64,000 nt of DNA. It comes from Planctomycetota bacterium (lineage in GTDB: Bacteria > Planctomycetota > Planctomycetia > Pirellulales > UBA7805). Below, one piece after another: positions 1,219 to 45,047 of the stretch (position 1 is its first letter; each line of letters starts with the position of its first letter). Under the pieces are notes generated by a model. The model made no database searches. It was not told where the DNA came from and saw only the letters and a program-made list of their open reading frames with translations. The translations under genes and the position numbers were made by a program. The DNA is taken from assembly GCA_003389215.1 (NCBI GenBank), contig QQVP01000064.1, positions 1,468-65,467 on the forward strand. The letters are read 5' to 3'.

Positions 1219-1387
1219 GAGTTTTTTTCGTGATCGGCGTATTTCGGACTGAGTGCACAAAAACTCGAACTGCTTTCCGCGACGTGACTTAGCGACGCGC
1301 GAAGCGGGGCAAAGTTGGCTCCGAAGTGCTGGGCCGCGTTGGTGTTAGGTTCTTGCTGCCCTTCCCGCGAGTGGACGGTAAAAAACT
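1219..1387. repeat. Dispersed ~170-bp non-coding element, copy A
   Basis: Motifs GAGTTTTTT, AAAAACTCGAA, TTAGCG, TGGCTC, GTTAGGTT, AAAAAACT occur in the same order and spacing as at 42762-42931. Confidence 0.75.
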
Positions 1388-1415
1388 CCCTCGTTTGGAA
1401 TGGGGTGGCCATCCC

Positions 1416-1491
1416 GGGGTCGGGTCCAATTTTCGGCCGCTCGATCGTTCTTGCGGGAAAGCTCACTGACCGAAAACTTGGACCGGACCCC
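1416..1491. repeat. REP-like long inverted repeat
   Basis: GGGGTCGGGTCCAATTTTCGGCC ... GACCGAAAACTTGGACCGGACCCC, ~23-bp imperfect stem with ~30-nt loop. Confidence 0.65.
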
Positions 1492-1737
1492 TTCGTGGCC
1501 ATGGGCGATATCCGCATGATGGCCGGACGCGTGAGCGAGAGCAACCGAGCACGCTTGCCTTGAGGGCAAGCGAGCGCAGGGCGGTAGACGAAGTGCCTGT
1601 CCCTACACGTCCCACTGCCGTTTCGGGCTATCTTTGGTCTGTCGCACAGGCACTGGCGTAGCTCGTGTCACCCGTCGCTCGTCAAACCTACCAAACAGGC
1701 GTCCTATTCCCAAACGAGAATGAGACAGCGGCCGCGA

Positions 1738-41304: not shown

Positions 41305-42657
41305 TCACATGAACGCCGCCGCTTCACCGCCCTCGCTCGTGTCGCCGCGTGCCAGACGATCGAGGGCCGCCTCGCACTCGAGCAGGGCCCGTGCCACATG
41401 GTAACCTGCCTGCCAGTGGCGTCCGCTGCGCGTGCGGGCGCGGCGAAATCCCCAGGCACTTCGATACGGCAGCCAGGGTCCCTCGGTATCGGGCACCAGA
41501 TGGCGGAACGTCCAATCGCGGATTGCCTCGAACGTGCGATAGTAGCGAACCGTGCCGGTGAGCTCATAGGTCCTCAGGAAGGTCACCATCATTTCGGCCT
41601 GGGCCCACCAAAACGAGTCGAGTGCCGCCGGTCGTCCGCGATAGTCGCCGGCCGAGTAGGCGGCGCCGTGGCGGCTGATGCCATGTTCGAGCAGGGCGTC
41701 GGCCACGCGAGTGACCCAGGCGGTGAAATCGTCTCGCACGATATTCAAGGAACGCACGATCTTGGTCGCGTACCAGATCGCCTCGGCCGAATGTCCGAAA
41801 AAGGTCCGGGCCACGTTCGACCCGTCCGGCGGTAGCGGCTGCCAATCGAAGGCCAGCCCGTTGTACATCAGGCCGCTGCGATCGCCTATTTCATACTTCT
41901 CGATCAGCAGGTCGAGCAACGTGTCGATTTCGGTGCGTTGCCGGTCATCGGGCGCCACCTGGTGCATGCGAAACAGTCCCAGCGTCGCGTGAATGTGATC
42001 CTGTAGCGGTTTAACGGCGTTGCGCGGATGATCTGGCGGCAGTGCGAAGAAACTCAGATAGCCTCCGAATCGCTCGTCGCGGGCCTGCTCGCGAAGCAAC
42101 GCGACCGCGCAGCGGGCCAGGTCGAGGGCCTGCGGACAACCGATCAGGCGATGCACCGAGGCGAGCAGATACAGGGCGTGAATCTGCACGCGGGTTTCCA
42201 TGTCTTCGCGGGCCGCGGCCGAAGTTTCGTCGGGGAGCGTAAAGAAGCCGCCCGTGTCGTCGTCGCGATAGTGATCGACCAGGAAGCTCAGCCGTCGTCG
42301 ATACTGGCCCCGCAACTCCGTCTGGCGCGATGCGTCCTTCGCACGGGCAATCGCAATCGCGTGCGTATACAGCAGCCGCAGCTGAACGATGGCGCCCCTT
42401 TCCGTCTCGCCAGTGAACCGCAGGCGGCGATCGAGGTGCGGCACGAAACCGCCGAAGCGTTCGTGATTGACCGCCGGCGAGACCCAGAACGGCAGGATCT
42501 GCCCGTCGAGGTGCGTGGCCAGTGCTGCGCGCGTGGCGGCCAGTTCCTCGGGCGTGGGCGCCGCTTGCGGCAGACGATCGCTGCAACAGCCCGCCTGCAG
42601 CCACAGGGTAATCGCGTTGCGCCAGCGCGCCAGGAGCCTTCTCATGCGAGAGAACAT
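41305..42657 (-). CDS. AGE family epimerase/isomerase (cellobiose 2-epimerase-like)
   Basis: ILPFW, DHIH, FGHSAE, WWAQAE, GYHVAR; start uncertain. Confidence 0.82.
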   Translation of the reverse strand: MFSRMRRLLARWRNAITLWLQAGCCSDRLPQAAPTPEELAATRAALATHLDGQILPFWVSPAVNHERFGGFVPHLDRRLRFTGETERGAIVQLRLLYTHAIAIARAKDASRQTELRGQYRRRLSFLVDHYRDDDTGGFFTLPDETSAAAREDMETRVQIHALYLLASVHRLIGCPQALDLARCAVALLREQARDERFGGYLSFFALPPDHPRNAVKPLQDHIHATLGLFRMHQVAPDDRQRTEIDTLLDLLIEKYEIGDRSGLMYNGLAFDWQPLPPDGSNVARTFFGHSAEAIWYATKIVRSLNIVRDDFTAWVTRVADALLEHGISRHGAAYSAGDYRGRPAALDSFWWAQAEMMVTFLRTYELTGTVRYYRTFEAIRDWTFRHLVPDTEGPWLPYRSAWGFRRARTRSGRHWQAGYHVARALLECEAALDRLARGDTSEGGEAAAFM

Positions 42658-42761: not shown

Positions 42762-42931
42762 GAGTTTTTTCGCGCCAGGCGGGAAATTCGCGTTGGCAGG
42801 CAAAAAACTCGAAGTCCCTTGTCGCGTTCGATTTAGCGGCGCGCGAACCTGCGTCGACCTGGCTCGCAAGATCCGCCGGTCACAGACGTTAGGTTTCTTG
42901 CCAGGGGATTTCGGACGAGGCGCAAAAAACT
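42762..42931. repeat. Dispersed ~170-bp non-coding element, copy B
   Basis: Same ordered motifs and offsets (+1) as 1219-1387. Confidence 0.75.
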
Positions 42932-42960
42932 GGCGCCTGGGCGCAGCTCAACACGCCAGG
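42924..42960 (-). terminator. Hairpin plus U-tract on minus strand downstream of boxA
   Basis: Minus strand CTGGCG...CGCCAG-TTTTTT. Confidence 0.45.
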
Positions 42961-42982
42961 TCGTCATTCACCAAAGTGCATT

Positions 42983-43002
42983 ATCAGATTGTCAAAGAAC
43001 GA
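42983..43002 (-). promoter_or_regulatory. boxA-like Nus antitermination signal
   Basis: Minus strand TCGTTCTTTGACAATCTGAT versus rrn boxA TGCTCTTTAACAAT. Confidence 0.5.
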
Positions 43003-43186
43003 TGTCGCCGAAGCACGACGTGGCCGTAAGCGTGTAATCGCTGCCCTGCGTCAATCTTGCTTGGCGGCGCTGATGTGAACGACTCAGCAGACCGCGCAGC
43101 GGCGACCGGCGCGCGAAGTGGCGCCAACTTCAAGCTACCGGAAGCGCTGGCAAATTCAAGCGCGGGAATGTGCCACCCACGGGCAC

Positions 43187-43462
43187 TCATTCCGCCAGCG
43201 GGGTCGAGCGCTCGGTAATCGAGGGAGTCTTCCGCGACATCTCGGCGTTGAGCGCGACGAACTCCCGCCACGGCTTGGGGACTTCGTCTTCGTGAAAGAT
43301 CGCCTCGACCGGACATTCGACCTGGCATGCCTGGCAATCGACGCACTCGTCCGGGTCGATGTAGAGCATCTTTTCGCCCTCGTGAAAGCAATCACAAGGG
43401 CAGACGACAACGCAGTCGGTGTATTTGCAGCCAAAACAAGGGGCGGTAACGACGAAGGCCAT
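43187..43462 (-). CDS. fdxA: FdxA-type ferredoxin
   Basis: CFGCKYTDCVVVCPCDC, IDPDECVDCQACQVECPVEAI; strong RBS. Confidence 0.92.
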   Translation of the reverse strand: MAFVVTAPCFGCKYTDCVVVCPCDCFHEGEKMLYIDPDECVDCQACQVECPVEAIFHEDEVPKPWREFVALNAEMSRKTPSITERSTPLAE

Positions 43463-43673
43463 GAGCGACTCTCCTTTCGAGTCTGAAGGGAATGGGCTGG
43501 TTGCGCGGGGATCCCGATCCGCGGGGACGGTCGTCCGCGCGCTGGGCTGTGTCTCTACGGGTTGATCCGATTTGGCGGTAGAATTGGTCAGGGAGATTCC
43601 AAATTTCGCACGATTTTCTTGGACGGCTCGGCGTGTGCCTTTTGGGTCGAGCCGCCCAAGGCGTGAGGGGCCC

Positions 43674-45047
43674 GTGTCAAATCCGCAGTCCGAGCAGCTC
43701 TTGCGGCAACTTGAGGCCGGCCAGAGTGAAGCCGCCGCGGCCGTTTTCGACCGCTATGTCGGGCGGCTCGTTGAATTGATCCGCAGCCGCATGGGGGCCT
43801 CTCTGCGCCGACGCATCGACGCCGAGGACGTCGTCCAATCGGCCTATCGCAGTTTCTTTCGCCGCGCGGGCGATGGCGATTTTCGCACGTCGCAGCAGGA
43901 CGACTTGTGGCGACTGCTGGCACGCATTGCCCTGCACAAACTTTACGGGCAGATCGAAAAGCACACGGCGCAGAAGAGGAACATTGCCCGCGATCGGCCG
44001 CTCGACGAAACGCTGGAGCGTGCGCGGGCCGAACCACCGGTAGTCGAGGCCATCGCTTTGGCGGAAGAGTTGCGCCTGGTCCTGGAAGATCTCTCGGACG
44101 AGGAGCGAGGCGTACTCGAGGCGACCTTGAGGGGCGAGCCGCTCGACGAAATCGCTCGCGTGCTCGGGCGTTCGGAGAGAACGGTGCGTCGCCTGCTGGG
44201 GCAATGTCGCCGCCGGATGGAAGACCGATTCGAGTGCGGTCCCACCGCGCCGCGCGACCTCCGGCCACTTGTCGACGAGGCTGCGGCCCCCCTGAAGTTT
44301 GCCGACTACGTGCTGGAACGACTAATTGGCGCTGGCGGTATGGGTAAGGTCTTTCGCGCCCGTGAGGAACCGACCGGCCGGATCGTGGCCGTCAAGGCAC
44401 TCCACAAGGCGCGCCAGGGCGACGCGCGGGCCGTTACACGATTCGTGCAGGAATCGCAGATTCTCTCGCAACTGCATCATGGGCATCTCGTGCGCGTCGA
44501 AGGATTGGGCCGCTTCCCCAGCGGTGGTCTGTTCATGGTGATGGAATATATCGAGGGTTCGGACTTGCAGCGACGCTTGGAACTCGGTCCGTTTCCGCTT
44601 GCCGAGGTCGTCCGCCTAGGCAGCGAGGTCGCCGAGGCCGTGCGACATGCCCACCGCCACGGAGTCGTGCACTGCGACCTGAAACCGGCCAATGTGCTGC
44701 TCGACGTGCACGAGCGGGCCCACGTCACCGACTTCGGTTTTGCCTGGATGACGAGCCGAGCGGTGACAGCCGACCGATCGTTGATCGGGGGGACGATCGG
44801 CTACATGGCGCCGGAACTCTTGGCAAGCAACACGACGCCGACGCCGGCGGTCGACGTCTATGCGGTTGGTCGACTGGTGGCTGCCATGGCCACGGGACGA
44901 TCAGACGGCGAGTGGCAGCCCGACGTCGACGATGATCCGCGGCTGCAGCCGCTTCGCGAGCTGTTGGACGGATGTCTCGCCGTTGATCCGCGGCAGCGGT
45001 TGGCCACGATCGATCGGGTGCTGGAATGCTTCGCCGCGCTGCGGTAA
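43674..45047 (+). CDS. ECF sigma factor fused to Hanks-type Ser/Thr kinase
   Basis: sigma2 DAEDVVQSAYRSF, sigma4 EIARVLGRSERTVRR; kinase GAGGMG, VAVK, HCDLKPAN, DFG, GYMAPE in one ORF. Confidence 0.9.
   Translation: MSNPQSEQLLRQLEAGQSEAAAAVFDRYVGRLVELIRSRMGASLRRRIDAEDVVQSAYRSFFRRAGDGDFRTSQQDDLWRLLARIALHKLYGQIEKHTAQKRNIARDRPLDETLERARAEPPVVEAIALAEELRLVLEDLSDEERGVLEATLRGEPLDEIARVLGRSERTVRRLLGQCRRRMEDRFECGPTAPRDLRPLVDEAAAPLKFADYVLERLIGAGGMGKVFRAREEPTGRIVAVKALHKARQGDARAVTRFVQESQILSQLHHGHLVRVEGLGRFPSGGLFMVMEYIEGSDLQRRLELGPFPLAEVVRLGSEVAEAVRHAHRHGVVHCDLKPANVLLDVHERAHVTDFGFAWMTSRAVTADRSLIGGTIGYMAPELLASNTTPTPAVDVYAVGRLVAAMATGRSDGEWQPDVDDDPRLQPLRELLDGCLAVDPRQRLATIDRVLECFAALR

Follow-up and report, generated by a model that had tools for sequence, protein, structure and literature searches.

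What kind of element lies twice in the intergenic DNA of the window, the whole stretch of 64,000 nucleotides analysed here, with its motifs at fixed distances and the bases between them free to differ? The two copies are on the forward strand: copy A (172 bp) occupies positions 1219 to 1390 and copy B (173 bp) positions 42762 to 42934, and we refer to the element as E171. An earlier note on this DNA had described six motifs that follow in the same order and at matching offsets in both copies, and on a base-by-base reading every one of these offsets is right. The motif GAGTTTTTT starts at 1219 in A and at 42762 in B, and its distance to AAAAACTC is 48 nt in A and 49 nt in B; TTAGCG follows at +70 and +71, TGGCTC at +97 and +98, GTTAGGTT at +125 and +126, and AAAAAACT ends at +168 and +169, respectively. 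The element does not end with this last motif, as had been thought; its real end is about 3 nt further, at ...CTCCC (1390 in A, 42934 in B). The single indel said to separate the copies describes the net offset of 1 nt correctly, but the best alignment carries 13 gap positions. This global alignment scores 21, with identity in 107 of 179 columns. The score for 500 dinucleotide shuffles is -35.1 +/- 6.9 with a maximum of -14, and 500 random intergenic 172-mers of the same genome give a mean of -37.5 and a maximum of -11. The likeness of A and B is thus beyond chance, standing at z = 8.1 against the shuffles and above all 500 random intergenic sequences.

The repeat observed in the window is real, and its scope is wider than first stated, since it comprises a family and a composite unit. 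The source genome of the window (G000) is a draft of 5.55 Mb in 135 contigs with 62.6% G+C. BLAST with copy A against this genome gives many matches, partial and full, and five rounds of nhmmer give 38 matches that resolve into 25 loci, the leftovers being reverse-strand echoes of the palindromic part. Of these loci, 24 are full or near-full length and one holds model positions 1-103 only; A and B are among them, with the diverged copy B picked up from the second iteration onward. The profile scan for more copies, for which the earlier note had allowed the outcome of none, is in this way answered with 25 loci. From a MAFFT alignment of the 24 copies (A2, 62% mean column identity) a covariance model (R1) is built, which recovers all 25 loci of the source genome, the half copy included. 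Copy A, found by both nhmmer and the covariance model, matches model positions 1-173 with 155.6 bits and a sharp left boundary, and copy B matches the same positions of the covariance model with 125.8 bits. In the sole other genome of the genus searched (G001, a draft in 580 contigs), the model finds 37 full-length copies (E <= 2e-6) and one partial copy.

Outside the genus the family fades out. Among 39 relatives the covariance model gives eight single weak matches (17-19 bits, E about 1e-3), which are taken as noise, and 2 of 20 genomes of the taxonomic family match at E <= 1e-4. A search for the exact pattern GAGTTTTTT-N26-38-AAAAACTCNAA finds 19 sites in G000, one in G001 and none in the 39 other relatives, and the reversed-pattern control finds zero. 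A scan of genome contigs with the pattern gives at least 115 rows, nearly all of them chance matches in AT-rich genomes; when 123 loci (L026-L148) are re-scored with the profile, the only one retained among the matches listed, besides a G001 locus, is L117 from an uncultured Planctomycetaceae MAG (E 4e-4, model positions 1-81). The same scan of metagenome contigs gives at least 117 loci, and 22 of them carry a full-length copy by the covariance model among the matches listed. Because 19 of these 22 bit scores are identical to that of a G000 or G001 copy (the other three are 53.4, 38.3 and 61.2), no third lineage for a second co-variation test is found among the metagenome matches listed. The plasmid and phage sequence libraries contain no match to E171. 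Rfam gives nothing at gathering level for the window, nothing at E <= 10 for copy A, and two chance-level matches alone (E 1.2 and 4.5) for six whole units, so that the description of an unannotated, non-coding repeat holds with respect to Rfam families. E171 is therefore a family of dozens of copies, restricted to one planctomycete-like genus. We call the genus planctomycete-like because the window carries an ECF-sigma/Ser-Thr-kinase fusion gene, of a type typical of planctomycetes, and because the L117 match comes from a Planctomycetaceae MAG.

We turn to the anatomy of the element. The length of full copies is 171-173 bp with a single exception of 185 bp, and conservation sits in about 45 positions, nearly all of them A or T, with GC-rich spacers that are free to vary. 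In the information profile the conserved positions are GAGTTTTTT at model positions 1-9, CGAAATTCG at 21-29, AAAAACTCGAA at 42-52, TTA at 72-74, AA at 107-108, TTA at 128-130, TT.TT at 133-137 and AAAAAACTCCC at 164-173. The fixed motif spacing with free spacers, proposed from two copies, is thus seen across the family. The same is true of the AA(G/C)-N18-TTAG boxes, two of which are found at a spacing of 56 bp in both A and B. In copy A, box 1 (AAC-N18-TTAG) lies at 1268 to 1292 on the forward strand, and its AA and TT columns (51-52 and 72-73) are among the most conserved of the family; box 2 (AAG-N18-TTAG) follows 56 bp later at 1324 to 1348 on the same strand (columns 107-108 and 128-129). 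The left terminal inverted repeat of copy A, GAGTTTTTTT (1219 to 1228, forward strand), pairs with the right one, AAAAAACTC (1380 to 1388, forward strand). An internal inverted copy of the terminal motif, AAAAACTCGAA (1259 to 1269, forward strand), closes a 48-nt imperfect hairpin, H1, with positions 1219-1228. Across the family this hairpin takes the first 48-49 nt, where GAGT6-7 pairs with A5-6CTC around a loop region that is CCGAAATTCGG-like. With the terminal 9-mer present again in inverted form at the 3' end, each element has three such sites (forward, reverse, reverse). The motif GAGTTTTT is intact in 19 of 24 G000 copies, where the median pairwise identity is just 0.53; outside the copies it has 76 occurrences, near the 46 expected from base composition.

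The inverted termini of 9-10 bp read GAGTTTTTT...AAAAAACTC in the source genome and GACTTTTTT...AAAAAAGTC in the second genome, whose copies have GACTTTTTTTGCC at the 5' end, AAAAAACTCCAA at the internal site and GCCAAAAAAGTC at the 3' end. For the comparison of the two species we use a model-guided alignment (A3) of 24 G000 copies, 35 G001 copies and two reverse-strand echoes (61 rows). Over the 59 copies, 93.9% of the 537 cells compared between the 5' and 3' termini are complementary, a value reached by 0 of 500 shuffles, and when the partners are slid against each other the complementarity is at most 71.9%. The inverted T-tract and A-tract arms noticed at the ends of A and B are accordingly a property of the family. 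At the third position from each end the pair is C-G in 30 copies, G-C in 26 and something else in 4; the state GAG/CTC is found in 18 of 24 G000 copies and GAC/GTC in 27 of 35 G001 copies. The 5' end and the internal site (column 4/50 of A3) form a GC pair in 29 copies and do not pair in 32. The two termini have changed together, and the internal copy of the motif has not. This co-variation is one evolutionary change common to many copies, not many independent events, and an RNA helix would explain it equally well.

In most copies the 171-173 bp are not the whole element, as the earlier description of about 170 bp had implied, but the left module of a composite unit of 0.3-0.9 kb. The left boundary is sharp and the repeated DNA runs on rightward; unit lengths range from 302 to 889 bp, and the seven shortest align end to end. 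Composite unit A (510 bp, 1219 to 1728, forward strand) contains E171, a palindromic element that we call PE, more repeated segments and a right terminus ...ACGAGAATGAGACAG (1714-1728). PE is a REP/REPIN-like palindromic element of 88 bp (1410 to 1497), in the source genome the main one of the palindromes that often interrupt such units, and it belongs to a separate family of about 45 copies: the BLAST depth of the PE region is 42-46 other places in the genome, its motif counts are 43 and 40, and it lies at most 110 nt downstream of E171 in 10 of 25 G000 copies. Composite unit B (about 416 bp, 42762 to 43177, forward strand) lies between the start of the epimerase-like gene (41305-42657, reverse strand) and the end of the ferredoxin gene (43187-43462, reverse strand). 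Its middle module TTGTCAAAGAACGA (42989 to 43002, forward strand) is read directly, and its right module, GCGCGAAGTGGCGCCAACTTCAAGCTACC ... GGGAATGTGCCAC with a diverged right terminus (43110 to 43177, forward strand), is aligned with six other short units. Of the 13 occurrences of the middle motif RTTGTCAAAGARCG in G000, 8 come after a same-strand E171, and the motif is also downstream of 16 of 37 G001 copies. The right terminus is ...CTTCAAGCGAGAATGTGACAG in G000, where 9 of 11 strict matches genome-wide follow a same-strand E171 and a looser motif finds it in 15 of 25 copies; in G001 it is CCCTACCACAGGTGCCGGGTTCAAAACAAACAAAA, downstream of 22 of 37 copies.

Two loci of the source genome depart from this architecture. 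At the half copy C2:76773, E171 position ~103 is joined straight to the right terminus, and this copy is thus an internal deletion; at C25 there is a tandem triplication. The target-site duplications proposed as a check are absent: no direct repeat flanks E171 or the unit as a whole in either species, and no conserved target sequence is seen, the left flanks of both species having just a C/G preference in common. In contigs from four sequencing runs, breaks fall at about 1222-1815 and the summed depth rises there 2-18-fold, which shows repetitiveness alone; no contig of the four runs joins across an empty site. The source genome has six Y1_Tnp (IS200/RAYT-like) loci, one of them flanked by REP palindromes related to PE. 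No E171 terminal motif is found within 1.5 kb of the six loci, and the nearest E171 copy is 14 kb off. The locus with the PE-related palindromes explains the REP companions of E171, not E171 itself.

The genomic context is assessed with gene calls from our own rough codon-usage finder (4012 calls, 83% coding). All 25 G000 copies lie between genes, with two of them overlapping an uncertain ORF call. The copy shares its strand with the upstream gene in 12 cases and lies on the other strand in 13; for the downstream gene the counts are 9 and 13, with three copies facing a contig end. Convergent, divergent and tandem gene pairs around the copies number 4, 4 and 14, similar to the background of 732, 693 and 2452, so no bias in gene arrangement appears against this background; there is also no bias to the G-rich strand by GC skew (8/23). 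The earlier statement that A and B are intergenic and next to accessory-looking genes is right in its first half only, since the genes near them encode a biotin ligase, a DUF6924 protein, a GlcNAc-2-epimerase-like protein, a ferredoxin and an ECF-sigma/Ser-Thr-kinase fusion. In both species the DNA upstream is unique to each copy as far as the first base of E171, and therefore no shared promoter precedes the element. A scan for promoters and terminators finds nothing of either kind in unit A and chance-level sites only in unit B. As a candidate promoter we have considered TTGTCAAAGA, whose reverse complement has TTGACA, yet it lacks a -10 hexamer at 16-18 nt in both species and is rejected. 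A small ORF or type I toxin is dropped as well, the alignments having no conserved start codon.

The history of the copies can be followed by comparing their sites, for which the DNA flanking each of the 37 G001 copies is searched against G000 with tblastx and the matches are then mapped pairwise. Four pairs of copies share both site and orientation between the two genomes (C16:16719 of G000 with L162 of G001, C1:323815 with L178, C7:19262 with L165, and the half copy C2:76773 with L169), their positions agreeing within about 40 nt; by our own estimate about 0.3 chance coincidences are expected with about 3000 intergenic regions. Leaving out the half copy C2:76773, the three other pairs have an identity of 0.47-0.51; when each of these G000 copies is compared with all 37 copies of the other species, its same-site partner comes 8th to 14th. 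The median identity is 0.53 within G000, 0.64 within G001 and 0.47 between the species. The same-site pairs are no closer than random cross-species pairs, and the free positions are therefore saturated. At the shared sites the motifs, the length and the species' own terminus state are all retained. Two other sites are filled in G001 and empty in G000: the L172 site, with about 600 nt between two genes against 76 nt, and the L173 site, with about 1420 nt against 205 nt. Copies have therefore been gained or lost since the species split, and the short empty spacers (76 and 205 nt) are what we have to judge the direction from, be it gain or loss. Both shared and empty sites are undercounted because G001 lies in 580 contigs.

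Within G001 there are mosaic pairs in which two segments differ in identity (L171/L181 with 0.58 and 0.93, L183/L186 with 0.89 and 0.58), and the nearest relative differs between thirds of the element in 28 of 35 copies. This pattern hints at exchange between copies, and part of the pattern could be noise, given how diverged the sequences are. In G000, at a median identity of 0.53, recent movement is not visible save for one trio at about 92%. Copies that share a site and carry species-specific termini require one of three processes, namely sequence exchange among copies, more than one insertion at the same spot, or selection that tracks a changed binding protein.

What is E171, then? Our best reading, which we hold tentatively and with confidence somewhat short of even, is that E171 is the left end, 171-173 bp long and bounded by terminal inverted repeats (TIRs), of a genus-specific, non-coding, non-autonomous interspersed element whose unit measures 0.3-0.9 kb. 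It would be an old, vertically inherited MITE/BIME-like element that is read in trans by a candidate protein, with a putative function. This reading follows from the many copies in one genus, their intergenic location in either orientation, the co-changed inverted termini, the filled and empty sites, the deletion and tandem derivatives and the composite build colonised by REP-like elements. We infer recognition by a protein, a mode of movement and copy exchange as follows. A protein encoded elsewhere would read the three GA(G/C)T6-7 sites (forward, reverse, reverse) and probably the two AAS-N18-TTAG boxes too, as double-stranded or hairpin DNA, and it may have moved the unit into intergenic DNA without target duplication. 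The copies would be old and inherited vertically, with GC-rich spacers that presumably drift to saturation; selection, possibly aided by copy exchange, would hold the recognition positions and the exact length, and the right side of the unit would then gather REP-like palindromes. No autonomous relative with E171 ends is found by profile and covariance model in the draft assemblies, where all matches to the hairpin part fall in known copies and where an IS may be unassembled.

This bears on the three options that had been offered, a recombination or insertion site, a chromosome-organising site and a non-autonomous mobile element. The last fits best, since E171 is multi-copy, intergenic, in either orientation and restricted to a genus, with co-varying inverted termini and filled and empty sites. 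The analogy with attP/res sites is not supported, because 25 and 37 dispersed copies are not one site beside a recombinase; no recombinase lies beside A and B, whose adjoining genes are housekeeping-like. The suggested resemblance to an IHF site finds no support either, as no match to WATCAANNNNTTR (with up to one mismatch) occurs within A or B, and the whole window has 10 matches where 9.4 are expected.

The fixed architecture could also come from RNA, and the evidence for RNA structure in E171 is weak. The 25-37 copies would then form a paralogous family of small structured RNA genes, or be RNA modules transcribed together with their neighbours. Pairing of 5' GA(G/C)U6-7 with 3' A6(C/G)UC would close a domain of 170 nt, for which the internal A-tract would be a second possible partner, and the conserved A/U positions would correspond to loops or to sites where proteins bind. 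A strictly kept length, A/T positions conserved amid variable GC-rich stretches, the compensatory change of the termini (C-G in 30 copies, G-C in 26) and copies that persist at shared sites despite saturated divergence would all suit such an RNA. The covariation analysis proposed for telling RNA from DNA gives a divided answer, in that the termini co-vary but the signal in the hairpin is weak on the 59 copies. In G000 alone the hairpin does show some covariation (score 0.146; shuffles give 0.103, and 1 of 500 attains the observed value), with pair 12/40 being CG in 9 copies, GC in 8 and GU in 2; over 59 copies the value is 0.104 against 0.093, which 33 of 500 shuffles reach, and in G000 the G-U cells (26) are in balance with the A-C cells (23), where an excess of G-U would speak for RNA. 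The hairpin of the forward strand is more stable than that of the reverse strand in 36 of 37 G001 copies, but these copies are related, and hence not independent, and they are G/T-rich. Against dinucleotide shuffles, the mean z-score of the minimum free energy (MFE) is -1.05 in the inner hairpin, lies near zero (-0.5 to +0.1) in the middle and 3' parts and comes to -1.6 over the whole element, with both strands alike. With the 24 G000 copies as input, RNAalifold returns the T/A stem alone, and with the 61 rows of A3 it returns nothing. Against an RNA stand also the flanks that are unique to the first base, with no conserved promoter upstream, the promoter and terminator sites that are absent in unit A and at chance level in unit B, the missing Rfam match and an orientation that is random relative to the neighbouring genes. 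We consider an RNA origin of the pattern unlikely.

The same conserved positions could also belong to immobile host DNA sites, that is, to architectural, chromosome-organising or regulatory platforms where a host protein binds phased A/T motifs and where old duplications are held by selection. The A/T clusters at fixed spacing (including the two bipartite boxes 56 bp apart), the retention of sites common to both species and the species-wide motif variants, as expected when sites track one binding protein, agree with such platforms. These would have to coexist, however, with sites that are filled in one species and empty in the other, with a GC skew that gives no strand bias (8/23), with the lack of a tie to any type of gene arrangement and with the lack of a match to the IHF consensus; the internally deleted C2:76773 and the tandem triplication at C25 resemble the decay of a repeat, and changing 25-37 sites in step with a protein is hard by point mutation. 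Host sites are thus an improbable account of E171. Less probable still is that E171 is the relic end of an IS200/IS605- or REP/RAYT-type element, which one of the Y1 HUH transposases of the genome has moved in the form of single-stranded hairpin DNA. The lack of target duplication, the sharp left end that starts with a hairpin, the close association with a REP-like palindrome (PE within 110 nt in 10 of 25 copies) and the six Y1_Tnp loci of the genome, one flanked by PE-related REP palindromes, would be accounted for. IS200/IS605 ends, however, lack the true inverted termini that E171 has, no conserved target of 4-5 nt precedes the left end, no Y1_Tnp gene is flanked by E171 motifs and the hairpin stems are poorly conserved in G001. 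Such a relic would be a narrower version of the non-autonomous element that we prefer.

Taking E171 as an old non-autonomous element, we can compare it with systems that are already described. MITEs bounded by terminal inverted repeats include ERIC/IRU, YPAL and Correia/NEMIS. Like them, E171 is non-coding, 100-200 bp long, multi-copy, intergenic in either orientation and lineage-restricted, and it has short inverted repeats; its termini are complementary in 93.9% of the cells of the 59 copies, and two sites filled in G001 and empty in G000 give evidence of movement. It differs from MITEs in having no target-site duplication and no parent IS with its ends in the draft assemblies, in copies that are far more diverged (median 0.53) and yet keep about 45 positions and the exact length, in a third, internal copy of the terminal motif, and in forming the end of a larger unit whose right terminus is different.

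With REP elements the likeness lies in the history of the copies. Gilson et al. reportedly described in 1987 that palindromic units at the same site follow the own consensus of each enterobacterial species. The species-specific termini of E171 at shared sites parallel those palindromic units and also what is described for the REPIN-RAYT system. Vertical persistence is seen here in the four same-site pairs of G000 and G001, and REP/BIME elements (PMC2817692) and REPIN-RAYT systems (10.1101/2021.07.10.451892, 10.1101/2022.05.22.493013, 10.1101/2024.10.14.618302) resemble E171 in being vertically inherited and long-lived, in their shared sites, in their mosaic composite arrangement and in their species-specific variants. 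The E171 unit of 171-173 bp is, however, neither a palindrome of 20-40 nt nor a hairpin doublet of about 100 nt, its hairpin takes the first 48 nt only, and no RAYT flanked by E171 is found among the six Y1_Tnp loci; the REP-like families of the genome (PE and others) are separate elements beside E171. To the PATEs derived from IS200/IS605 (PMC6006769), E171 is similar in its lack of target duplication, its hairpin-forming ends, its non-coding nature and the presence of Y1 transposase genes; it differs from them in its inverted termini, and it lacks both a conserved target tetranucleotide and a related IS copy. E171 is therefore outside every family tested, being neither a classic MITE, nor a REP/REPIN, nor an IS200/IS605-type PATE, nor a member of an Rfam family.

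Interspersed extragenic repeats have been little charted outside the proteobacteria, and to our knowledge no family of this kind is known in planctomycetes. A general literature search on repeats, as distinct from a dedicated one, finds no such planctomycete family, and a search for four motif strings returns unrelated primers alone. What the family unites is a fixed length, conservation confined to motifs, and a species-wide joint switch of the termini at loci that seemingly predate the species split. A bolder interpretation, which we regard as possible but doubtful, is that E171 may be a new, long-lived and vertically inherited intragenomic replicator, analogous to REPINs in a different architecture, all copies of which are kept in step with a candidate genus-specific protein that binds or processes DNA. 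The replicator would be a 172-bp TIR-bounded module with three recognition sites and two bipartite boxes, the copies at shared sites included.

For work on the source organism, E171 units and their REP-like companions break its assemblies, and the units could pass wrongly for regulatory or recombination sites. If the replicator interpretation is true, it would explain the joint switch from GAG/CTC to GAC/GTC over dozens of loci amid saturated spacers, it would predict a specific protein partner for E171, and it would give, beside REPIN-RAYT, a second system for how genomes keep, or are colonised by, non-coding replicators.

We begin with the ~172-bp intergenic repeat E171, which varies in both the draft genome containing the window (G000) and its sister species (G001), the only other genome of the genus. 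A subtype in which CAGGGGGGCCCCAGG replaces CCGAAATTCGG in the first hairpin is present in both species, at C7:19262 (contig:position; locus L025) in G000 and at L177, L197 and L198 in G001, where L177 retains the G000-type ends, TAG...CTC. At C10:976-990 (L014) in G000, an E171 copy is directly preceded by a tandem duplicate of its own initial 13 nt (GAGTTTTTTCGCC). At C25:58167-59842 (L003, L159), downstream of another E171 copy, lie three tandem repeats with a period of ~583 bp, made up of the composite unit's right part together with the palindromic element PE. Downstream of unit B and the ferredoxin gene in the window, the plus strand carries a fusion of an ECF sigma factor (PF07638) and a Ser/Thr protein kinase domain (43572-45047).

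Around the G001 copies, a conserved GGCGAACATTTGTGGAACAAATGTTGAAC motif lies ~60-90 nt past the GGGTTCAAAACAAAC module at eight loci (L168, L173, L176, L181, L184, L186, L189, L196), preceded upstream by a GGCGGTCGGCCGCC hairpin. The motif contains the word GAAC(A) three times, spaced by ~11 nt, with an 8-bp palindrome within, and no consistent ORF follows it at these eight loci. E171 in G001 is also adjoined by that genome's own REP-like families, for example GTGGGGCGGTCTCCCGACCGCCCCAC and GGTGCCATGCCCACGTTCACGTGGGCATG, in the flanks of L164, L168, L171, L174, L181 and others; these families are unlike the PE of G000.

We turn our attention to the interior of unit A. A stretch of ~65 nt at 1523-1587, bearing the hairpin GCTTGCC-TTGAG-GGCAAGC, has at most one other copy in G000 versus at least 10 matching places in G001 (79-86% identity), so this repeat family has expanded in the sister species only. 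PE itself, an 88-bp palindrome (GGGGTCGGGTCCAATTTTCGG...CCGAAAACTTGGACCGGACCCC) at 1410-1497, recurs at about 45 places elsewhere in G000. Its arms are similar to the REP palindromes (AAACGGGACAGGTCTAATTT...) on the flanks of a RAYT-like Y1_Tnp gene of 227 aa at C1:297763-298074. PE and this gene probably constitute a REPIN-RAYT system of G000.
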